Shown here piece after piece: positions 3,771-60,388 of a stretch of DNA of 64,000 bases. The notes under the pieces were generated by a model. The model searched no databases and had not been told where the DNA came from. It worked only from the letters and a program-made list of their open reading frames with translations. The position numbers and the translations under genes were made by a program. Origin of the DNA: an uncultured Verrucomicrobiota bacterium (GTDB lineage Bacteria > Verrucomicrobiota > Kiritimatiellia > CAIQIC01 > Lenti-01); the NCBI GenBank assembly GCA_964647595.1, contig CAZYGH010000002.1, forward strand, positions 3,599 to 67,598, read 5' to 3'. Numbering within the stretch: position 1 is the stretch's first letter; each line of letters begins with the position of its first letter.

Positions 3771-3803
3771 CTCTGTGAGAGAAATTCCATCCCTCTCACA
3801 GAG
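3771..3803. promoter_or_regulatory. Perfect 11-bp inverted repeat (ctctgtgagag-N11-ctctcacagag) in the divergent promoter region upstream of pgl
   Basis: Read directly from sequence. Lies between the divergent 2534..3580(-) gene and the pgl-zwf-gnd operon. Confidence 0.4.
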
Positions 3804-3894
3804 TCCACAGGGGAACACAGAGTCTCCTCCTATCAAAATTCCCGTCTCATCCCCCCTCTCATTTTCTAAAAGAGCGGTGGCAAAAGCCTCCCAC

Positions 3895-6102: not shown

Positions 6103-7560
6103 ATGAAAACAAAAGCAGATATCGGTGTCGTCGGCTTGGCCGTCATGGGCGAAAACCTCATTCTTAACATGGAAAGCAAAGGCTTCACCGTCGCCTGCTT
6201 CAATCGCACCACCGCCAAAGTGGACGCCTTCATCCACGGCCGCGGCAAAGACAAAAATCTGATCGGTTGCCACTCCCCCGCCGAGCTTGTCGTCGCTCTC
6301 GAACGTCCGCGCAAAGTCATGATGATGGTCCGCGCCGGCCGCGCCGTCGATGAACTCATCCACGAACTCATTCCCCTGCTGGAACCCGGCGATATCTTGA
6401 TCGATGGCGGCAACAGCTATTATCCCGACACCATCCGCCGTTGCGCCGACATCGAAAAGCATGGCCTTCTCTATGTCGGCACCGGCGTCTCCGGCGGCGA
6501 AGAAGGCGCCCTCAAAGGCCCTTCCATCATGCCCGGCGGAAATGCCAACGCGTGGCCCGCCCTTCGCCCCATCTTCCAAGCCATCGCCGCCAAAGTGGAC
6601 GATGGCTCCCCCTGCTGCGAATGGCTCGGCCCCGACGGTGCCGGCCACTTCGTGAAAATGGTCCACAACGGAATTGAATACGGCGACATGCAACTCATTG
6701 GCGAAGCCTATCACCTCATGTCCCAAGGTCTCGGCATGTCGCCCGCCGAAATGTCCGATGTCTTCCGCCGCTGGAACCATGGCGTGCTGGATTCGTATCT
6801 CATCGAAATCACCGCCGACATTCTCGCCAAGACCGACGACGAAACCGGCAAGCCCCTCGTCGATGTCATCCTCGATGCCGCCGGACAAAAAGGCACCGGC
6901 AAATGGACCTCACAAGCCGGACTCGATCTCGGCGTCGGCATTCCCCAAATCGCCGAAGCCGTCTTTGCCCGTTGCCTGTCCGCCATCAAAGAAGAACGAG
7001 TCGCCGCCGCTCCCCACCTCGTTGGCCCCAATCAACAATTCTCTGGCGACAAAACGGCTTTCCTCGCCGACCTCGAACAAGCCGTCTACGCCGCCAAAAT
7101 TTGCTCCTACGCCCAAGGCTATCAACTTCTCCGCGCCGCATCCGAGGAACACGACTGGAAGTTGAACTACGGCAACATCGCCCTCCTCTGGCGCGGCGGC
7201 TGCATCATCCGCGCGCAATTCCTCGGGAAAATCAAAGAAGCATTTGATGCCAACCCCGCCCTCGCCAATCTCCTCCTCGCGCCATACTTCAAAGACGTCA
7301 TCGCCCACGCACAATCCTCCTGGCGACGCGTCATCAAAACCGCCATCGATCTCGGCATCCCCCTCCCCGCCATCTCCACTGCACTGAGCTACTACGACGC
7401 CTACCGTTGTGAACGCCTCCCCGCCAACCTGCTCCAAGCCCAACGCGATTACTTCGGCGCCCACACCTACGAACGCACCGACAAACCCCGCAACGAATTC
7501 TTCCACACCAACTGGACCGGCCAAGGCGGCACCACCGCCTCCACCAGCTACGGCGTCTAA
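6103..7560 (+). CDS. gnd: 6-phosphogluconate dehydrogenase, decarboxylating
   Basis: IGVVGLAVMGENLILN Rossmann motif, MVHNGIEYGDMQLI, full-length ~485 aa. aaggaaaa RBS. Confidence 0.9.
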   Translation: MKTKADIGVVGLAVMGENLILNMESKGFTVACFNRTTAKVDAFIHGRGKDKNLIGCHSPAELVVALERPRKVMMMVRAGRAVDELIHELIPLLEPGDILIDGGNSYYPDTIRRCADIEKHGLLYVGTGVSGGEEGALKGPSIMPGGNANAWPALRPIFQAIAAKVDDGSPCCEWLGPDGAGHFVKMVHNGIEYGDMQLIGEAYHLMSQGLGMSPAEMSDVFRRWNHGVLDSYLIEITADILAKTDDETGKPLVDVILDAAGQKGTGKWTSQAGLDLGVGIPQIAEAVFARCLSAIKEERVAAAPHLVGPNQQFSGDKTAFLADLEQAVYAAKICSYAQGYQLLRAASEEHDWKLNYGNIALLWRGGCIIRAQFLGKIKEAFDANPALANLLLAPYFKDVIAHAQSSWRRVIKTAIDLGIPLPAISTALSYYDAYRCERLPANLLQAQRDYFGAHTYERTDKPRNEFFHTNWTGQGGTTASTSYGV

Positions 7561-24153: not shown

Positions 24154-26067
24154 ATGAACTCAGTTGAACTTATTGTCATCGGGGCTGGCCATGCGGGCTG
24201 TGAGGCGGCCCTAGCAGCCGCACGAATGGGTGTTCGGACCGCGCTTGTCACGATGGACCTACGCGCTGTTGCGAGAATGTCCTGCAACCCTTCCATCGGT
24301 GGGATCGCCAAATCTCATATGGTGTTCGAACTGGATGCCCTTGGTGGCGAAATGGCCTTGAATACCGACTGCACGGGGATTCAGTTTCGGGTTCTCAATA
24401 TGCGCAAGGGTCCGGCTGTACGAGCCAACCGGGCACAATGCGACAAGCCCGCCTATTCCGCCCGCATGAGCGCCGTCCTCCAGACCCAAGACCATCTGAC
24501 CTTGATCGAGGATCAAATCGAGTCCATTGCCGTGCAACAGGATCAGATTCGCGGCGTTTGGGGGCAAAAATCAGGCTACCTCGAGGCTCCAGCCGTCATT
24601 TTGACGGCTGGGACCTTCTTGAGGGGAAAGATCTTCATTGGAAAACAAGTCGTGAGTGGTGGGCGGCTTCAGGAGCCCTCCGAGGAAAACCTGAGCCTTC
24701 AATTGAATCAGATGGGATTCCGAATGGAGCGACTCAAAACCGGCACCCCGCCCCGTTTGCACAAGGACAGTCTGGATTATTCTAAAATGTCCATCCAACC
24801 CGGCGAAACCCCACCTCCGTTCTTTGGATGGCAGTGCCGAGCCTCGGCAGGCATGTTCCACGTGGAACAGTCTGCTTCCGACCCTTTCCCACCGCCTGCT
24901 TCCGTTGTTCCACGTGGAACATCCATTCCACTACCTCCCTTTGCACCGTGGATTCCAGGAAGTCAGCAACTCCCGTGCTGGCTGACCCATACGAATGAGA
25001 AGACCATTCAGATCATTTCCGACCACTTGGATGATTCCGCCTTGTACGGCGGTCTAATCGAAGGCACCGGGGCTCGATACTGCCCCTCCATTGAAGACAA
25101 AGTAGTGAAGTTCTCCAGCCACAGCAATCACCATGTCTTTGTGGAGCCCGAGGGGAGGGGGGTGCTGGAAATGTATCCCAATGGAACCTCCAACAGCCTA
25201 CCGCTGGACGTTCAACTCGATATGATCCATTCGATTGCGGGCCTCGAAAAGGCGGAGTTTTTGGCACCGGCCTATGCCATTGAATATGATTTCTTTGATC
25301 CCACTCAACTCTTCCACACCTTGGAAACCAAACGGATCCAAGGACTCTATTTTGCTGGCCAAGTGAATGGAACCACGGGATACGAAGAAGCAGCAGCGCA
25401 GGGCTTTATGGCGGGAGTCAATGCCGCCCTGCGCCTCCGCAACCAAGAGCCGCTGACTCTCAAGCGCCATGAAGCCTATATCGGGGTCATGATCGATGAC
25501 CTCGTGACCAAAGGCACCAACGAGCCCTATCGAATGTTTACCTCCCGAGCCGAACACCGCCTTCTGTTACGGCAAGACAACGCCCCCTTTCGGTTGTCAT
25601 CTCAAGCGAAACGTCTGGGAATCGTCCCCGTCCATCGGCGACAAGAAATTCAGAACATGGAACGAGAAATCGCCCAAGAAATTGACCGCCTGAACCAAAC
25701 CTACCGCGATGGTTCCTCCTTGGCCCAATGGCTGAAACGTCCAGAGGTCCAGTATGCAACCTTGCCCGGTCATCGGGATGACCTCTCAGCTGAAGTTGTC
25801 GAACAGATTGAATTTTCCCTCAAGTATGAAGGCTATATTGAACGGGAGTGGCGACAGATTGAAAAATCAGAACAAGTCGCCAAGCAACGCATTCCAGAAG
25901 ACTTCAATTATCAGACCCTCTCCGCTCTCCGCTACGAATCACGAGAAAAACTATCCGCGATTCGTCCGCGCGATTTAGGGCAAGCTTCGCGCATTTCCGG
26001 TGTTACCCCAGCGGATATTTCTATCCTCTCCGTGTGGCTGAAAAGGACAACTCCGACTCCTCGTTGA
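24154..26067 (+). CDS. mnmG: tRNA uridine 5-carboxymethylaminomethyl modification enzyme MnmG (GidA)
   Basis: FAD motif [13 protein letters not shown], full-length 637 aa, adjacent to mnmE. Confidence 0.9.
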
Positions 26068-28689: not shown

Positions 28690-28895
28690 ACGCCGCCAAC
28701 GCGGTTTTCCACAGTGTGGAAACATTTCTTCCATTGTGTGGAAAGCGCGCGTCCCGCGCACGGATTGCCGAAGGCAAGTTCCGCTTCGGAACGAGGGCCA
28801 AACGTGGCCCGAAGCCCAATCGCGAAAAAATCTTCCATTCTATGGAAAACTTTTGCAACGGCGGCTATCACAGTTAATTAATTGTGATAGTCGTT
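28690..28895. promoter_or_regulatory. Cluster of palindromes in a convergent intergenic region: TTTCCACAGTGTGGAAA, TTCCATtgTGTGGAA, TTCCATtctATGGAA, ctatcacagTTAATTAAttgtgatag, plus two short hairpins
   Basis: Read from sequence between 28659 and 28900. Lies between the 3' ends of two convergent genes. Confidence 0.4.
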
Positions 28896-31278: not shown

Positions 31279-32661
31279 GTGGAAACGACCCAGGCAAAAC
31301 AGATTTGGACAAAGGCATGCGAGTTCCTCTCGTCTGCCATTTCTGCGGACATCTATAACCGATGGATTGGCGTGATCGAAGCCATCGGCGACGACATGCC
31401 CGGACAGTTGACCCTAACGGTGCCGAACGGATTCTATCAGGACTGGCTTGAAGAGCATTACCTGTCCATGATCCACAAAGCCATTGAAGCATCGGGCGCA
31501 GAAAATGTGACGACTAGTTTTGTGGTGGACGGAGCGCGCCCTCCCGTCGAATCGCTTTCCACTCCACCACCACCGAGAGAAGAGAAAGAAACCGGCTCCA
31601 AGCGCCGTGTTTTGAAGTCGTGTAATGTGGGCGGCGTACTCAATCCACGCCACACGTTCGACAACTTTGTGGTGGGGCCCTCCAATAGTTTTGCCCATGC
31701 CGCTGCCTTGGCGGTGGTGGAGGCGCCAGGACGCGCTTACAACCCTTTGTTCATCCATGGCGGCACGGGACTCGGCAAGACTCATCTGATCCAAGCCATG
31801 GGCCAGGAAGTGCTCAAGCGGGGGAAGGGGACCGTCTGCTACGTCTCCTGCGAATCCTTCACAAATGAATACATTCAAGCTCTGAAGCAAAATGAAATTT
31901 CCGCCTTCCGAAAGAAATACCGCACAATCGACCTATTGCTGATTGATGACATCCATTTCCTCGCCGGCAAAGAAAGCACGCAGGAGGAATTCTTCCATAC
32001 ATTTAATACCCTGTATGAAAACCAAAAGCAGATCGTATTGACCAGCGATCGGCCCGTCAGCGAAATTGGGAATCTTCAAAAGCGTCTGGTTTCCCGATTT
32101 GAGTGGGGCCTAGGCACTGAGATGGAAATGGCCGACCTCGAAACCCGAGTGGCCATCCTTCGCAGACAGCGCGACCAATTGAACATTCATCTTCCGGACG
32201 ACACCCTGTTCTTTATTGCCGAACACGTGCGCTCCAACATTCGGAAGCTGGAAGGCTCGCTCCTTCGGGCCGCCTCCTATGCTTCCTTAACCCGCAAGCC
32301 CCTAACCACGGAAGCGCTCGAATATCTCCTGCGCGATACCATCGAACAGGAAAAACAGACCGCATTGACGATCGAAGGCATCCAGCGGACCGTCGCGGAA
32401 TACTACGACATCCGGTTGGGCGACATGACCAGCAAGCAACGGCCACAAAATATCGCGTTCCCCCGGCAGGTCGCCATGTATCTCTGCCGCGAGATGACCG
32501 ACCAATCCCTGCCCGCCATCGGAAATGGATTTGGCCGAAACCACGCCACCGTTCTTCATGCCCATCGCTCGGTGGGCGAAAAGATGAAGACCGACACCGG
32601 GCTTCGACAAACCATTCTTTCTCTTCAGCAACGGTTGGGCGGAGTGTCCGCCCCCGCGTGA
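31279..32661 (+). CDS. dnaA: Chromosomal replication initiator protein DnaA
   Basis: AAA+ Walker [11 protein letters not shown], sensor motifs, C-terminal DNA-binding domain (NHATVLHA). GTG start with aggaagagg RBS. Confidence 0.92.
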
Positions 32662-32726: not shown

Positions 32727-32735
32727 TGTGGATAA
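32727..32735. promoter_or_regulatory. Consensus DnaA box (TGTGGATAA) 66 nt downstream of dnaA stop
   Basis: Exact match. Followed by the TGTGGACAA, GTCCACACA and ATCCACAGA variants inside the repeat. Confidence 0.6.
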
Positions 32736-32777
32736 CCCTGTGGGAATCGCTGGATTTCCTGTTCATAAACCATAATC

Positions 32778-32952
32778 CGTGTGGACAATCCCAAGTTGTC
32801 ACCTTTCCCCACAGGCAGGAGGGGGCCGTTCTCGACAGGTCCACACACGATAAAAGGCCCGTCTGGATTGATCGTTCAAGGATATGCACACGATCCACAG
32901 AACCTATTAATAATGCTTATTTAAACTTCTATATAAAAAAGAATAGAAGTAG
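32778..32952. repeat. Direct repeat copy 1 (~175 bp): DnaA-box-like motifs plus 45-bp AT-rich DUE-like tail
   Basis: ~90% identical to 33850..34023. The last ~107 bp are identical in both copies. Confidence 0.85.
32904..32950. promoter_or_regulatory. AT-rich putative DNA unwinding element (cctattaataatgcttatttaaacttctatataaaaaagaatagaag)
   Basis: ~80% AT in a ~60% GC genome, immediately 3' of the DnaA-box cluster. Confidence 0.5.
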
Positions 32953-32973
32953 AAGGCCATCTTCCGTATTTTC

Positions 32974-33189
32974 ATGCCGATGAAATCCATGGCCAAAATT
33001 GAAATACTCCGAAAGATGAAATCCAGTGCGGCATGGAAACGTGCGGAAGCCTATGGCATCGATATGTCCCTGTTGGAATCAAATCTTCGGCATACCGTTG
33101 CGGAACGTCTGCGTCAACACGATGCCGCCTTGCAAACCCTTCTCGCTTTGCGCGAAGCCGTGAAAAAGAAACATGCCACAACCGTCTGA
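32974..33189 (+). CDS. Small all-helical protein (71 aa), putative partner or antitoxin of the downstream nucleotidyltransferase
   Basis: ATG start. 17-nt overlap with the downstream gene. Charged helical sequence. Confidence 0.45.
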   Translation: MPMKSMAKIEILRKMKSSAAWKRAEAYGIDMSLLESNLRHTVAERLRQHDAALQTLLALREAVKKKHATTV

Positions 33190-33658
33190 CATTTTAAGAC
33201 TATTGAGTACACACGGTGTGGATTTCGTCGTGGTCGGCGGATATGCCGTCGTTGCCCACGGTGGAACCATGGTTACTCAAGATGTCGATGTCTGCTGCTG
33301 CTTTTCTCAAGAAAATCTCCTGCGCGTTCAGGATGCGCTCAAAGACGTCCATCCTGTTCATCGCATGACCCCAAAGCGGCTGCCGCTGCAGTTGACGGCG
33401 GATCATGGCCAAGGCCTTAAAAACATCTACCTAGACACAGATATCGGCCAGCTCGATTGCCTGAGCACGATTCTCGGAGTCGGCGATTTTCAGGAAGTGA
33501 AAAAACGAAGTTTTATGGTCAACATGAACGGCTACGAACTGCGACTGCTGGAATTGGATGCCCTCATCGCAGCAAAAAAAGCTATGACCCGACCTCGCGA
33601 CAGAGAAGCTGTCATTCAACTCGAGGCGTTGCGGGACGGCGGAAAAGAAGGGGAATAA
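33173..33658 (+). CDS. Pol-beta-superfamily minimal nucleotidyltransferase (AbiEii/MNT-like, DUF6036-like)
   Basis: VVGGYAVVAHGGTMVTQDVDVCC matches the hG[GS]x9-13Dh[DE]h NTase motif. 161 aa. Confidence 0.6.
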   Translation: MPQPSDILRLLSTHGVDFVVVGGYAVVAHGGTMVTQDVDVCCCFSQENLLRVQDALKDVHPVHRMTPKRLPLQLTADHGQGLKNIYLDTDIGQLDCLSTILGVGDFQEVKKRSFMVNMNGYELRLLELDALIAAKKAMTRPRDREAVIQLEALRDGGKEGE

Positions 33659-33849
33659 CATGCCTGACCTCGCACAATTCCAACTTTTAAAATGCCTTTG
33701 TCCTAAAGGCATCTATTAGAAGAAGAGGGAACATCCTCCATATGTTCATGGCGCGACTACCCTCCCTCAAGGAATTGGAAAATTTCTGCCCAAAAAGATG
33801 AATTTGAAACTAACTACAACAATATTAGATTATAGGCCTGACCCCATTT

Positions 33850-34023
33850 CGTGTGGACAATCCCCAGTGATCCCCTTTCCCCACAGGCAGGAGGGGGCCG
33901 TTCTCGACAGGTCCACACACGAAAAATGCCGACCTGGATTGATCGTTCAAGGATATGCACACGATCCACAGAACCTATTAATAATGCTTATTTAAACTTC
34001 TATATAAAAAAGAATAGAAGTAG
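33850..34023. repeat. Direct repeat copy 2 (174 bp) with its own AT-rich DUE-like tail (33975..34021)
   Basis: Aligned by eye to copy 1. Ends 42 nt before the wzx ATG. Confidence 0.85.
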
Positions 34024-34065
34024 TAGGTGGGCCTTCGTTCCTTTTTTTAATGATAGTTCAATCTC

Positions 34066-56644: not shown

Positions 56645-58801
56645 ATGAAGATGAAGAGGATGATTCAAATTGGGTTGGCGGGATTGTGCTTGGCCGTCCA
56701 TAGTGCTTTCGGACAGGTTGCAGACGAGTTGCCGATGTTGTGGGAGGTGACGCTGGAGGGAGGGGTTCTTCAGCAAATGCCATTTTCGCCCAAGCCGATA
56801 CGGATTTCAACCGATGGGGGGAACTTGATCTTTCAGCCGAACGAGATGGTGAGAGTGGAATTTCCCATGATCGATCAATGTGTGGTCACGACAGTGGGTG
56901 GCGATCGCTGGATCTTTGCGGCAAGACCTCAAATTCTATTGAGCCTTGTGGAAGGCGAGAAAATACGATCGGCTTGGGATGCGGTGAAGTCCGTTACTTT
57001 TTTGAATCCAACCTCGCCGCCGGAATCGTCTGTGCTTTCCTGGAAGGTTGAACTTCAAAACGGGACGATGGTGAATGTGATTCCAGATGGGGAGATCATT
57101 CCGATTCAGACCACCTATGGGAAAGTCGATCTTCCTCTGGGCATGCTTCAGGGGGTGGAAACCGGCGAGGTGAATAGAATTGAAATTTCACCGGGCGGCT
57201 ATGCGTTGAAGGGCCTCGTTTCCGACTCCTCTCTTCTTGGAAAAGACTTCGGAGGACGGCAATTATCCATCCCTTGGAAATCAGTTGCAAGATTTTCGAG
57301 GCCCGAACGGTTGTCGCCCGAATCACTTCAATTTGAGCAGGAAGTCGCCGTGCGTTTGAAGGGGGGCGAAGAAGAGAGTACGAAAGTTCAGGTGATGATT
57401 CTATCGCTGGAAGGACGCGGTGGATCATGGGTTTTGCCTTCCACTCGCCTCTTGCAGATCCAAAATAATCTAGATGGAACCCATTCCATCCAAACCACGT
57501 TGGGTGAGTGGCTAACGGGAACCATTAAACCCAAAGAAATGACACGGGTGGAAGAGGGCGTGGAGACGAAAGTTTCGTTTTCGGATTGCATCTCCATGCG
57601 CTGGTCCAACAACAAACCGATGGACATGCCCACCAATAGTGTGGTGTGGCGACTGACCACGGGAGATTTACTGGTAGGGGAATGGAAGACCGATTCGATT
57701 GTGGTTCCGGATGGTTCTGCCAGCCTGATGAGGGTGCGAAACTCTGCTTCGGTAGCCGATTCCCGCCTGCCCGTTCAGGTGAATGGGAAGTGGACGGTTT
57801 CCTCCTTCCTTCTTCGACATGGATGGGATGGAGAATCCCTGAAAGTGTCCTCCGCTTTGGTAGAGGCCGTTCGTTTGGGGCCTATTTCGCAGATGCCTCC
57901 GACCCTTGTGGCGATGGGGCCCTCGGCGTTTTGGAGCGATGAAGTGCTGTTGCCGGGTGGATCGTTCCTCATGGGGCGCACACGAGGCGAGGGGGCCGAT
58001 GATGAGGTTCCGCCGGTGGAGCTTTTCTTGGAGCCCTTTTGGTTGGCATCGACACCGGTCACCGTTGCGCAATTTGCGGCCTATGTGCAAGCCACGCGTA
58101 CGGTGACGGATGCCGAGCGGATTCCTTCGGGGCCCTCTTGGCGGTCTCCCGGTTTTCCGCAACGTCCAGACGATCCCGTGGTTTGCATCTCGTGGCGGGA
58201 TGCCATTCGCTATTGCAATTGGCGTAGCAGCATGGCGAAGCGAACGCCCTGCTATGAGATCAGCAAGGATGCGCGCGAGATTGTGGTGTATCCCGACCGC
58301 AACGGATATCGCCTGCCGCTGGAGGTGGAACGTGAATATGCGGCGCGGTCCGGTGGGCTCGATGTCACATATCCGTGGGGTGAGGAGTCGGACATCGAGG
58401 TGGTCGTGGCCTTGGCCAACTTCCAGTATTCGGGGACGGGGATGGACCCGTGGCCTTGGACCAATCCGGTCAAAGCGTTTCCGCCGAACCCAGCCGGATT
58501 TTATGGCATGGGTGGCAACGTGTGGGAGTGGTGCCAAGACCTGTATCGGGCCGATGCCTATTCGGGTGCGTTGCGAGGCGAGGGATTGGAAAGCTGGCTC
58601 AATGCCACTCCAGGTCGTGACGAGCGGCGCGTCATGCGTGGAGGATCTTTCAACAACGCGCTTGACTACTTGCGGTGTTCAGCCCGCGGCTTCGGAATCG
58701 AGCGCATGAGCGCTTCACGCATCGGATTCCGCCTGGCTCGCAACAATCAGGCGGGTTTATCGGAGAAGGAGCCTTCGTGGCCTCGTTTTCGCTCCAATTG
58801 A
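56645..58801 (+). CDS. Secreted protein with C-terminal formylglycine-generating-enzyme (FGE/SUMF1) family domain and ~430-aa uncharacterised N-terminal region
   Basis: Signal peptide. C-terminal GGSFLMG..., GGNVWEWCQD, RVMRGGSF motifs of PF03781. Confidence 0.7.
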   Translation: MKMKRMIQIGLAGLCLAVHSAFGQVADELPMLWEVTLEGGVLQQMPFSPKPIRISTDGGNLIFQPNEMVRVEFPMIDQCVVTTVGGDRWIFAARPQILLSLVEGEKIRSAWDAVKSVTFLNPTSPPESSVLSWKVELQNGTMVNVIPDGEIIPIQTTYGKVDLPLGMLQGVETGEVNRIEISPGGYALKGLVSDSSLLGKDFGGRQLSIPWKSVARFSRPERLSPESLQFEQEVAVRLKGGEEESTKVQVMILSLEGRGGSWVLPSTRLLQIQNNLDGTHSIQTTLGEWLTGTIKPKEMTRVEEGVETKVSFSDCISMRWSNNKPMDMPTNSVVWRLTTGDLLVGEWKTDSIVVPDGSASLMRVRNSASVADSRLPVQVNGKWTVSSFLLRHGWDGESLKVSSALVEAVRLGPISQMPPTLVAMGPSAFWSDEVLLPGGSFLMGRTRGEGADDEVPPVELFLEPFWLASTPVTVAQFAAYVQATRTVTDAERIPSGPSWRSPGFPQRPDDPVVCISWRDAIRYCNWRSSMAKRTPCYEISKDAREIVVYPDRNGYRLPLEVEREYAARSGGLDVTYPWGEESDIEVVVALANFQYSGTGMDPWPWTNPVKAFPPNPAGFYGMGGNVWEWCQDLYRADAYSGALRGEGLESWLNATPGRDERRVMRGGSFNNALDYLRCSARGFGIERMSASRIGFRLARNNQAGLSEKEPSWPRFRSN

Positions 58802-58836
58802 CTTGCGCGGGAGATGCAGACGGGGTATAAAAAAAT

Positions 58837-59184
58837 ATGATTTGGCGGCGTCAAAATCCTTTGTTTCGAGCAGTACTTCTTGCATGGGCGGTTGGACTCT
58901 CGGTTCAGTGGGGAGTGGCTCAAGAACCCGTGGGGAAGATGGTGATTTTTGATTCTGTTGGGGAAAATCTCAAGGATCAGCGGGTTCAGGATCGTGTGAA
59001 AGATCGCCCGATTGGAATCACGGATGAAACGTTGAGAATCGATCGTGAATTGCGGCAGGGCGAGGCGGTGGTGACCACGCGTTCCATTAAGGCGGACCCC
59101 AATGCAGGGCCGCGTGTTCGGGCGCGTGCCACGGTGGATGAGGATCGGGCTCGTGTGAAGCGGGAGGTCGCCATATCGCAATAG
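58837..59184 (+). CDS. Small secreted hypothetical protein (115 aa)
   Basis: N-terminal signal peptide. No recognisable domain. Confidence 0.4.
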   Translation: MIWRRQNPLFRAVLLAWAVGLSVQWGVAQEPVGKMVIFDSVGENLKDQRVQDRVKDRPIGITDETLRIDRELRQGEAVVTTRSIKADPNAGPRVRARATVDEDRARVKREVAISQ

Positions 59185-59293
59185 GTTGCGATGTGAGAAG
59201 TCGATTCTGTTCTTGAAGTTCACCCTCCTGACAGGACATACTCAACAGAGTGAATTATGGAACGTCAATTAAGAGAACCAGCTAGGTGGCGGA

Positions 59294-60388
59294 ATGAAAA
59301 TTAAAGTCAATAAAGAGGCCATCATCGATTGCCTTCAGAAGGTTCAATCCGTTATCAATCCACGGAATGCCCTGCCGGTGCTTTCGAATATTTTGTTTAA
59401 GGCGGAGAATGGAAAGTTGGAGCTGACCGCGACCGATATGTCCATGACGGTTCGTGCCACTCTGGATGCCGAAGTGATCGAGCCTGGGTCTACGACACTA
59501 CCAGCCAAGCGAATTTTTGGTGTGTTCCGCGAATTGAGCGTGAGCGAAGCCGAGATGGAGGTCAACGAGGCCAATATCGCCTTTATTCATGCGGGCAGCG
59601 CGTATTTTCGAATTCATGGTATTTCCGAAGCGGATTATCCGAGCATGCCGGAAATGGAAGATGCCAAAGTGTATTCGTTGGATCAGTCCGCGTTTCGCAA
59701 CATGCTGAAGTTGACCTCGTATGCGGCCTCCACGGATGCGAATCGGCCGCTTCTCAATGGTGTCTTGCTTAGCTTCAAGGGCGGCAAGTTGAGCGTGGTG
59801 GCCACGGATAGCCGTCGGCTTGCGCTGGTCGAGCATGAGGTGGAATTTCCTGTGGATGCAGGAATGGATTTGATTGTTCCTCTCAAAACGGTGGATGAAT
59901 TGATTCGCACGCTGGGTGATATGGGCGGAATGAAAATTTTAGCCACGCCCAAGCAGATTGCCTTTGAGTTCGATGGCGTCTTGATCATTTCCAAACTGGT
60001 GGAAGGAAACTATCCCAATTTCCGACAGGTGATTCCGCAGGCCACAGGCGAACGGGTGGCGATGGAACGCGAAGCGTTGTTGACGGCCGTACGTCGCACG
60101 TCCCAATTGGTGAGCGATTCGGTTTCGGGTGTGAAGTTGACCTTTACCCAAAACCGCTTGGAAATTTTGGCTCAAGCCGCCGAGATTGGTGAAGGCCGCG
60201 AAACGATGGATGTGAAGTACAACGGGCCGGACATTAGCATTTCCTTCAATCCGGCCTTTGTGATGGACCCTTTGAAAACGTTGACGACGGACGAGGTGTT
60301 TCTGGATTTGTTGGATGACACCAGTCCGGGTGTAATGCGTTCGACCATTAGTTTTGTCTATGTGTTGATGCCGATTCGGGTCACCTGA
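59294..60388 (+). CDS. dnaN: DNA polymerase III beta sliding clamp
   Basis: MKIKVNKEAIIDCLQKVQ...LPVLSNILF...LELTATDM N-terminal signature, 364 aa, three-domain length. Confidence 0.9.
   Translation: MKIKVNKEAIIDCLQKVQSVINPRNALPVLSNILFKAENGKLELTATDMSMTVRATLDAEVIEPGSTTLPAKRIFGVFRELSVSEAEMEVNEANIAFIHAGSAYFRIHGISEADYPSMPEMEDAKVYSLDQSAFRNMLKLTSYAASTDANRPLLNGVLLSFKGGKLSVVATDSRRLALVEHEVEFPVDAGMDLIVPLKTVDELIRTLGDMGGMKILATPKQIAFEFDGVLIISKLVEGNYPNFRQVIPQATGERVAMEREALLTAVRRTSQLVSDSVSGVKLTFTQNRLEILAQAAEIGEGRETMDVKYNGPDISISFNPAFVMDPLKTLTTDEVFLDLLDDTSPGVMRSTISFVYVLMPIRVT

Follow-up and report, generated by a model that had tools for sequence, protein, structure and literature searches.

Here we describe a chromosomal replication origin whose core is present twice, in a 64,000-nt stretch of DNA from an uncultured Verrucomicrobiota bacterium (assembly GCA_964647595.1, contig CAZYGH010000002.1, positions 3,599–67,598). 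In this stretch, hereafter the window, to which all coordinates without a prefix refer, two direct copies of a repeat (A and B) lie downstream of dnaA and bracket a ~0.9-kb cassette of two overlapping genes, the larger of which encodes a nucleotidyltransferase (NTase) with a predicted fold like that of MenT1 of Mycobacterium tuberculosis. A capsule/exopolysaccharide (EPS) locus of ~25 kb follows, and beyond it stands dnaN, preceded by what we read as a third, decayed copy of the 3′ element of the origin (relic N). Our account of the whole, which we consider fairly probable, is that the origin of a Kiritimatiellia-like bacterium received two insertions at the edge of its unwinding tail, and that the cassette was bracketed by a duplication of the origin core. 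Both the copy number and the architecture of origins are thought to be tightly controlled, and to our knowledge natural partial origin duplications are very few, DU1 of Mycobacterium bovis BCG being one example.

Anatomy and derived status of the duplicated origin core

Repeat detection and alignment delimit copy A to 32778–32956 (179 nt) and copy B to 33850–34027 (178 nt), both on the + strand and 1,072 bp apart from start to start. The first-pass annotation, a model's reading of the letters of the window, had placed ~90% identical repeats at 32778 and 33850 and judged their 3′ 107 bp to be 100% identical; the repeat and its coordinates hold, while its identity is higher (169 of 179 aligned columns match, 94.4%) and its longest identical run is 90 nt (32863–32952). 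This run takes in a pair of DnaA boxes, a trio-like tract and an AT-rich tail, all described below. The differences are four substitutions at 32793–32801, one indel and four substitutions at 32851–32862, and a single-nucleotide difference at 32953; they are thus confined to the spacer between boxes b3 and b4, the spacer between b5 and the 3′ element, and one terminal position, and all five boxes shared by the copies (b3–b7) are identical. With all 10 differences held by the remaining 89 positions of the repeat, the probability that the 90-nt tract would carry none by chance is roughly e^-10, assuming equal rates. Constraint on the two copies or gene conversion is therefore indicated, and the two are inseparable here because the sequence of the AT tail is not conserved between species. 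Weak similarity between A and B reaches 9 nt further left of the repeat, and a search for microhomology at the duplication boundaries gave nothing convincing (5 of 9 bases match to the left of box 3, and none in L089, a second duplicated locus discussed below). We rejected the idea that the two clusters of differences are the halves of a covarying stem, since they are not complementary on inspection by eye, and also a simple tandem duplication of the 1,072-bp unit, since the cassette is present just once.

Judged by its sequence and setting, the repeat is the core of oriC. The dnaA gene (31279–32661, + strand) encodes a 460-aa protein with the Pfam domains DnaA_N, Bac_DnaA and Bac_DnaA_C (best E 2e-67), 76–93% identical to the DnaA proteins of metagenome-assembled genomes (MAGs) of Kiritimatiellia and Verrucomicrobiota. 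Column-by-column alignment to the single dnaA–dnaN spacer of relatives delimits the full oriC (32727–32956, + strand), which begins 66 bp after the dnaA stop codon and comprises copy A plus two further boxes to its left. Its seven DnaA-box-like sites are b1 (32727–32735, a perfect match), b2 (32760–32768) and b3 (32780–32788) on the − strand, followed on the + strand by b4 (32805–32813), b5 (32829–32837) and the tandem pair b6 (32882–32890) and b7 (32891–32899), each of the last two with 2 mismatches. After a 4-nt spacer from b7 comes the trio-like tract (32904–32921 in A, 33975–33992 in B) and then the AT-rich tail, which runs to 32956 in A and is 81% AT in each copy. Copy B has boxes b3–b7, the trio-like tract and the AT tail, without b1 and b2. 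The two copies are the densest clusters of DnaA-box-like sites in the window, with 7 and 5 sites (at most 2 mismatches) in 230 bp, where the window as a whole averages 2.8 per kb (Poisson P about 5e-6 for A and 6e-4 for B), which bears out the earlier description of such motifs and an AT-rich tail in each copy. The box positions are conserved across the spacers of 29 distinct relatives, which have the same seven sites as copy A.

Adjacency to dnaA and a significant box cluster are thus accompanied by a third hallmark of oriC, a switch in GC skew. The skew is strongly negative to about 24 kb; the cumulative G–C curve is flat over ~24–35 kb and then rises through the EPS island and dnaN. Because the skew turns at 24–35 kb and rises through both, it supports an active origin at A/B (33–34 kb) and not at relic N.

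Each copy also resembles the basal unwinding system (BUS), for which the published search rules are a box with at most 2 mismatches, a spacer of at most 16 bp and at least 3 NAN triplets (PMC8287927). Applied by hand, with box orientation relative to the Bacillus subtilis paradigm left aside, these rules pick out both A and B. As in the BUS (PMC8287927), each copy ends with tandem boxes, a 4-nt spacer, six trio-like triplets and AT-rich DNA; these six follow one another without a gap, each has an A at its centre, and they read 3′-GAT AAT TAT TAC GAA TAA-5′ on the strand that has its 5′ end on the side away from the boxes. The likeness differs from the BUS proper in that the consensus of the relatives shows only three trio-like triplets, and in that the match was made by eye rather than with the authors' program. 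Copy A, with its full box set, should be the origin that fires, and copy B would still be constrained, as a second site of unwinding or DnaA binding, as a DnaA-regulated promoter of the EPS operon, or as both.

Among known RNA families, a search of 30.8–34.2 kb gave only a sub-threshold AsdA-like match inside dnaA (E 0.14; 22.7 against 52 bits), which we take as chance. A plasmid or phage source for the region or for the NTase was considered and rejected, as PLSDB, INPHARED and IMG/VR gave no match at either the DNA or the protein level.

Relatives were gathered by DnaA searches of one-genome-per-species and metagenome collections and carry the labels Kiritimatiellia, Verrucomicrobiota or Lentisphaerae MAGs; names beginning with L denote the retrieved comparison loci or contigs, 179 in all. 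In 45 relatives with a DnaA at least 75% identical to that of the window, the gap between dnaA and dnaN is about 285–329 bp (a larger gap in L095 is a tblastn artefact). The window and its relatives share the order upstream, namely a 376-aa protein, a hydrolase, an M24 peptidase and dnaA. Their spacer holds a conserved module made up, in order, of three TGTGGAcAA sites, TTGGGCACA and TTTTCGACA, a variable stretch, the strongly conserved cgATTCTtttCTTGaTGTcCACActgTcCACAGGaCATACTgATAaGAC (which contains two tandem boxes), an AT-rich stretch and the dnaN ribosome-binding site (RBS). Copy A with 50 bp to its left aligns across this whole module, and copy B aligns from the third box to the end of the AT tail. 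Its alignment over the full length of the relatives' spacer identifies copy A as the orthologous oriC.

A second copy of the spacer was found in none of the 43 relatives tested, up to 10 kb either side within each locus, and the two-gene module is absent from the dnaA loci of all relatives; the closest informative one (L022, DnaA 90% identical) has the plain single-copy arrangement. On these comparisons, the duplication and insertion are derived and the gene-free single copy is ancestral. The first-pass annotation had raised exactly this ancestral state, to be sought downstream of dnaA in related genomes, and had allowed for relatives that share the duplication without the genes; the ~300-bp gap in all 45 relatives and the absence of duplication from all 43 tested answer the former question in the affirmative, and no relative of the latter kind occurs among the 43. 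That the clade has a conserved bipartite or duplicated origin, with the intervening genes as normal residents, is refuted by the same three results (the gap, no second copy and no module in any dnaA locus), and we give it practically no credence. Bipartite origins do exist in other bacteria.

A cassette encoding a nucleotidyltransferase with a MenT1-like predicted fold

The inserted cassette (32957–33849, + strand) is about 884–893 bp long; it opens with a short leader, continues with two genes that overlap and ends in 3′ non-coding DNA. Homologous cassettes elsewhere match only this segment and not the flanks of the window. As had been claimed from the letters, the list of open reading frames (ORFs) shows only a 71-aa and a 161-aa ORF between the copies, both on the + strand and overlapping by 17 nt. 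The same early reading had put the cassette in the dnaA–dnaN region, flanked by the duplicated core; its position at the origin and its flanks stand, whereas it does not lie in a dnaA–dnaN spacer, dnaN being 26.6 kb from dnaA.

The gene of the small partner, a putative antitoxin (32974–33189, + strand), encodes a conserved core, AWKRAEAYGIDxSLLExNLRxxxAERLRxHDAAL, and always stands directly upstream of, and overlaps, the NTase gene in at least 10 other contigs. Its product has no family match in Pfam, NCBIfam, PADLOC or PDB sequences and no likeness to known antitoxins.

The 161-aa product of the second gene (33173–33658, + strand), a Pol-beta-type NTase and putative toxin, matches Pfam DUF2204 (27.3 bits) and DUF6036 (25.7 bits), both just above the cut-off, and a literature search for DUF6036 found nothing. 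It has 1,292 homologues of about 160 aa, and the residues of its GG and DxD motifs (G22, G23, D37, D39, D88 and D90) are invariant or nearly so. An AF2 model built from 29 homologues (pLDDT 90) has a MenT-like NTase fold with these catalytic motifs, and its best solved match in Foldseek is the MenT1/MenAT1 complex of M. tuberculosis (8an5_B and 8an4_B; E 7e-7, TM 0.63–0.68), followed by a Thermotoga NTase and antibiotic nucleotidyltransferases. A profile search against the PDB reached MenT1 only at E 0.62.

MenT nucleotidyltransferase toxins belong to the DUF1814/AbiEii superfamily (PMC10435456, PMC7450476). Like the MenAT pairs described there, the cassette encodes a small NTase with GG and DxD motifs, has MenT1 as its top structural match (TM 0.68) and carries an overlapping small gene upstream; it differs from them in having no DUF1814 match, only 19% identity to MenT1 and a partner without detectable similarity to MenA1. 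The protein is thus no DUF1814 (AbiEii/MenT) member by sequence, Pfam giving only DUF2204 and DUF6036, and NCBIfam and PADLOC nothing. Because of the MenT1-like fold, the invariant GG and DxD motifs and the conserved overlapping small partner, we liken the cassette to the MenAT/AbiE type and regard it as a putative NTase toxin–antitoxin (TA)-like pair. An early description of the cargo as TA-like is supported by the fold match and the conserved small upstream partner. Its reading as a defence system was rejected, there being no PADLOC match. In the annotation of a matching Joint Genome Institute (JGI) contig, the segment 33200–33712 (L083 9135–9596) carries two short minus-strand ORFs and no 161-aa NTase gene.

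On longer contigs the pair is always co-oriented with its surroundings and stands at the head of or inside polysaccharide loci, often beside other TA pairs. In L088, for instance, the cassette lies between genes for DegT and VanZ that are adjacent to each other in the window, and the order in L166 is FGE-sulfatase, a homologue of a secreted protein that we call H (see below), FitA/PIN, the cassette and a CapD-like gene. In L171, a ~90-nt intergenic element (TTTTAACGA..TACCCCG..CGGGGAG..TTTTAACGAA) occurs twice (3803–3886 and 6304–6391), upstream of two operon starts between which lies a block of four genes that includes the cassette.

At its 3′ end the cassette of the window has a motif, GATTATAGGCCTGACCCCAT (33829–33848, + strand), that directly abuts copy B. 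The shared form of this motif, TTTATAGGACTGACCCCTT, follows the NTase gene in L174, L085–L087 and L089 and nowhere else in the 179 loci; in the closest cassettes it is found 100–200 nt after the NTase stop, often twice, 39–116 nt apart (for example, L174 688–705; L085 1590–1607 and 1706–1722; L089 1396–1413). On the + strand of the window, CTGACCCC has a single occurrence. No hairpin is predicted for the motif (z-scores 0.1–1.3).

The unrelated contig L089 offers a parallel to the origin. There, a cassette of about 882 bp lies within a ~408-bp direct duplication of host DNA (126–~533 and 1416–~1822, within 126–548 and 1416–1829; 87% identical), which includes a promoter region and a 110-aa secreted H-like ORF homologous to the window's ORF at 58837–59184; the 3′ motif is followed immediately by the second host copy, and the first breaks off in its last codons. 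These repeats are too diverged to be an assembly artefact. Taken together, the junctions in the window and in L089 suggest that insertion and duplication are coupled.

Two familiar kinds of mobile DNA were tried and rejected for the cassette. An insertion sequence or transposon does not fit, with no transposase among the two ORFs, no terminal inverted repeats, and duplications of 179 and about 408 bp; nor does an integron gene cassette, the 3′ motif having no predicted hairpin and the ORFs scanned over 27.5–60 kb no integrase domain.

The polysaccharide locus, the displaced dnaN and relic N

The dnaN gene (59294–60388, + strand; 364 aa) was found by tblastn with the DnaN of a relative (85% identity), and it is here that the relatives' downstream synteny resumes. 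The capsule/EPS locus (34066–59184, + strand), absent between dnaA and dnaN in all relatives, is complete and spans ~25 kb. By its Pfam-based content it includes genes for Wzx, a nitroreductase, a pyruvyl transferase, glycosyltransferases, Bac_transf, DegT, VanZ, CapD, Wza, Wzc, CpsB, Wzy_C/TPR and an FGE-sulfatase, and ends with the 115-aa secreted ORF H (58837–59184); GC content at its left end is low (46–49%). We rejected an integrase-mediated island as its source: its scanned ORFs have no integrase, recombinase or transposase domain, and its flanks are diverged copies, ~90 nt long and 44% identical, of the 3′ element of the origin.

The right-hand one of these flanks, relic N (59203–59293, + strand), aligns to the relatives' 3′ element and includes the dnaN leader and RBS. 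Of 35 columns with at least 90% conservation among the relatives, it preserves 28, and most of its losses fall within the two boxes; no DnaA-box-like site with up to 2 mismatches is left, and its AT content is only 63%. In copies A and B, 23 of the 35 persist: the boxes and the AT tail are retained, and the flanking ATTCT..CTTGA and CATACT blocks are lost. The conserved-column sets of N and A/B are thus complementary. The flanking bases that N retains would be the dnaN promoter and leader, and the ancestral element may have joined unwinding and dnaN-promoter functions that were partitioned after an older duplication accompanying the EPS insertion.

A related proposal is that the 3′ element is at heart a DnaA-regulated dnaN promoter, that each inserted operon kept or gained a copy of it, and that B has no role in replication. 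It has several things to recommend it: A, B and N each lie directly upstream of a + strand operon, A and B both carry a sigma-70-like match, TGCACA-18-AATAAT, and N keeps the RBS and the conserved bases outside the boxes. The match is weak (9/12) and has no counterpart in N, and B retains five boxes and the whole AT tail, beyond what a promoter needs. We regard this proposal as possible but on the doubtful side; it concerns function only, is silent on how the duplication arose, and is compatible with the two-insertion history set out below.

The far end of the locus can be compared with two other contigs. FGE-sulfatase and H stand at the far end in the window (56645–59184), and upstream of TA cassettes and polysaccharide (PS) genes in L166 (1–3379) and L175 (1–900). 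The two orders, cassette–EPS–FGE–H and FGE–H–(TA)–cassette–PS, are circular permutations of each other, a hint at a circular intermediate or tandem loci. This suggests that a circularised island may have integrated after a break between H and the cassette, an event that would need two origin-like segments on the circle.

Other elements were seen near dnaA. An 18-bp palindrome, TTTTCCACAGTGTGGAAA, whose two halves are inverted DnaA-box-like sequences, occurs at 28705–28722, 28727–28744 and 28831–28848, and also at 25312–25327, and the window holds 5 matches to TTCCANNNNNTGGAAA against 0.09 expected. Relatives have arrays of it (L006 7521–7590, L001 17544–17613, L004 12870–12947 and L091 19034–19111) in the same spacer to the left of dnaA and again about 6–8 kb to the right, with 22/31-nt spacing; possible readings of these arrays are parS-like sites that flank the origin and clusters of DnaA boxes. 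A near-perfect 32-bp palindrome, CGGCTATCACAGTTAA/TTAATTGTGATAGTCG, lies at 28862–28893 between two converging genes. In L112 (DnaA 76% identical), dnaA is followed by two 9-bp CTAGAnnnn arrays (1229–1277 and 2690–2756) that flank a 459-aa ORF, not by dnaN, and L024 and L110 likewise are without dnaN downstream of dnaA.

History of the locus and comparison with known origin rearrangements

We propose the following history. The ancestral layout, still found in the relatives, is a ~230-bp module in a ~300-bp dnaA–dnaN spacer; three leftward boxes are followed by four rightward ones, of which the last two stand in tandem, then by a trio-like tract of short length, an AT-rich unwinding tail and the dnaN leader. 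Foreign DNA would then have entered twice at a single site, where the unwinding tail ends on its right. In the older event, the 25-kb EPS locus would have parted dnaN from the origin, leaving before dnaN a second copy of the 3′ element that went on to lose its boxes and AT-richness and to keep the flanking conserved bases. In the later event, the ~0.9-kb MenAT-like cassette would have been inserted, bracketed by a 179-bp duplication of boxes 3–7 and the unwinding tail, to give one complete origin (A) and a 5′-truncated copy (B) one kilobase downstream. Most likely, in our view, the insertion itself made the duplication, through a recombination intermediate that carried both the cassette and its target (a Campbell-type single crossover). 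Alternatives would be a tandem duplication followed by insertion, or a staggered break and fill-in at the unwound origin. A Campbell-type insertion would leave the cassette excisable by homologous recombination. Repeats of 179 bp, 90 nt of them in a perfect core, suffice for RecA to delete the cassette.

Several observations weigh against this history. Flanking duplications occur in only 2 of about 10 cassette contexts; the cassettes of L088, L169 and L171 sit tight inside operons with no duplication, and L089 can also be read as a cassette between two tandem paralogues. A domain scan found no insertion enzyme in or near the cassette. We know of no mechanism that yields target duplications of 180–410 bp. 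The sequence of the AT tail varies among relatives, so that the perfect identity of A and B may reflect recency or gene conversion and not selection, and the promoter assignments for N and for A/B are weak consensus matches. Finally, the window is a single metagenome contig, and how its A- and B-specific variants are linked through the 90-nt tract depends on the JGI assembler.

The first of these observations also speaks for a different order of events, in which a 179-bp tandem duplication of the origin core arose by instability and the cassette entered its neutral junction later, the two events being unrelated. Duplications are reported to arise readily in origin regions (PMC6615170), and the junction of a tandem duplication would be a safe place for an insertion. 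Cassettes of the same family also insert without duplication, and the region downstream of the H ORF in L166 and L175 looks like a cassette hot spot that has none. Independent events would not lead one to expect, as is seen in both the window and L089, a second copy that begins at most 10 nt from the 3′ motif and a first copy that ends at the left edge of the cassette; nor does any relative carry a bare tandem duplication. We therefore judge duplication before insertion to be unlikely.

Bolder than the Campbell-type insertion that we favour is the idea that the cassette represents an undescribed, enzyme-less kind of mobile DNA, marked by the 3′ motif TTTATAGGACTGACCCCTT, whose insertion makes target duplications of 180–410 bp. 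Here it would have copied the unwinding module of the origin, either to give two potentially active units of DnaA boxes, trio and DNA unwinding element (DUE), or to shed a 1,072-bp origin-bearing circle stabilised by the TA pair. We put this forward as a long shot, less likely again than duplication before insertion.

The repeat could also be an artefact of assembly or of a mixed population, the true chromosome having one hybrid origin (A on the left, B on the right) and the cassette lying with the other hybrid on a 1,072-bp circle, in a tandem array or in another strain. Contig Ga0207193_1000131 of JGI metagenome 3300020048 contains the window in identical form, and an independent k=31 Logan assembly of SRR7760390 has the same four junctions as that contig; because the Logan contigs contain them, all four exist in the reads. 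A k=31 de Bruijn graph is nevertheless blind to the difference between integrated and excised states and unable to order junctions across shared tracts. Each shared tract indeed interrupts the Logan contigs, whose ends fall exactly 30 nt beyond every variant specific to A or B (L082 stops at 32831, L081 covers 32923–33903 and L084 begins at 33994). All the data are from one sample, and a scan of a metagenome contig collection gave no other contig with the repeat core, the exact 24-mer used having no match there, its source contig included. Against an artefact, the longest identical tract is just 90 nt, the JGI contig passes unbroken through the locus for 124.9 kb with all four junction types of the integrated form, and the analogous host–cassette–host structure of L089 has repeats that, at 87% identity, cannot be collapsed or misjoined. 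A tract of 90 nt is shorter than typical reads and than the largest k-mers of metagenome assemblers. With so short an identical tract and a JGI contig that runs straight through it, the assembled order A–cassette–B is likely, and an artefact we consider very improbable. A DnaA search for a closer strain found none (best full-length match 85%, and one partial match of 91%), and for that reason no intermediate state, such as the island without the cassette or the reverse, was recovered.

If the proposed history is right, the locus is a natural dissection of an origin into a complete copy, a copy without the two distal boxes and a box-less copy before dnaN that is no longer AT-rich. The complementary decay of the copies suggests that the ancestral 3′ element had two overlapping functions, unwinding and dnaN expression, that were split after duplication. 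A TA-like cassette and a whole capsule locus can, it appears, reside at the first replicated position of a chromosome, and were the link between this cassette family and long host duplications to prove general, it would point to an unrecognised route of insertion.

Two known rearrangements invite comparison. The DU1 duplications of M. bovis BCG are head-to-tail duplications of 7–30 kb that span oriC and include dnaA, dnaN and their neighbours (PMC6615170). Like them, the chromosome described here is a natural one with more than one near-identical origin copy in direct orientation; unlike them, it has only 179 bp of the core repeated and no gene duplicated, and one of its copies is without two boxes. 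The DU1 junction has no foreign insert, whereas here the copies bracket an inserted cassette. A duplication of the DU1 type was accordingly rejected for the window, in which dnaA and dnaN are single-copy, only 179 bp are repeated and foreign DNA lies between the copies. IS6110, for which the dnaA–dnaN spacer of M. tuberculosis is a recurrent insertion hot spot, similarly shows mobile DNA tolerated in an origin spacer. IS6110 has a transposase, terminal inverted repeats and a short target duplication, whereas the cassette has none of these and is flanked by a 179-bp duplication that contains the unwinding module. The locus is thus distinct from both DU1 and IS6110, combining a sub-kilobase, core-only origin duplication with a transposase-less TA-like cassette, a displaced dnaN and a decayed third copy.

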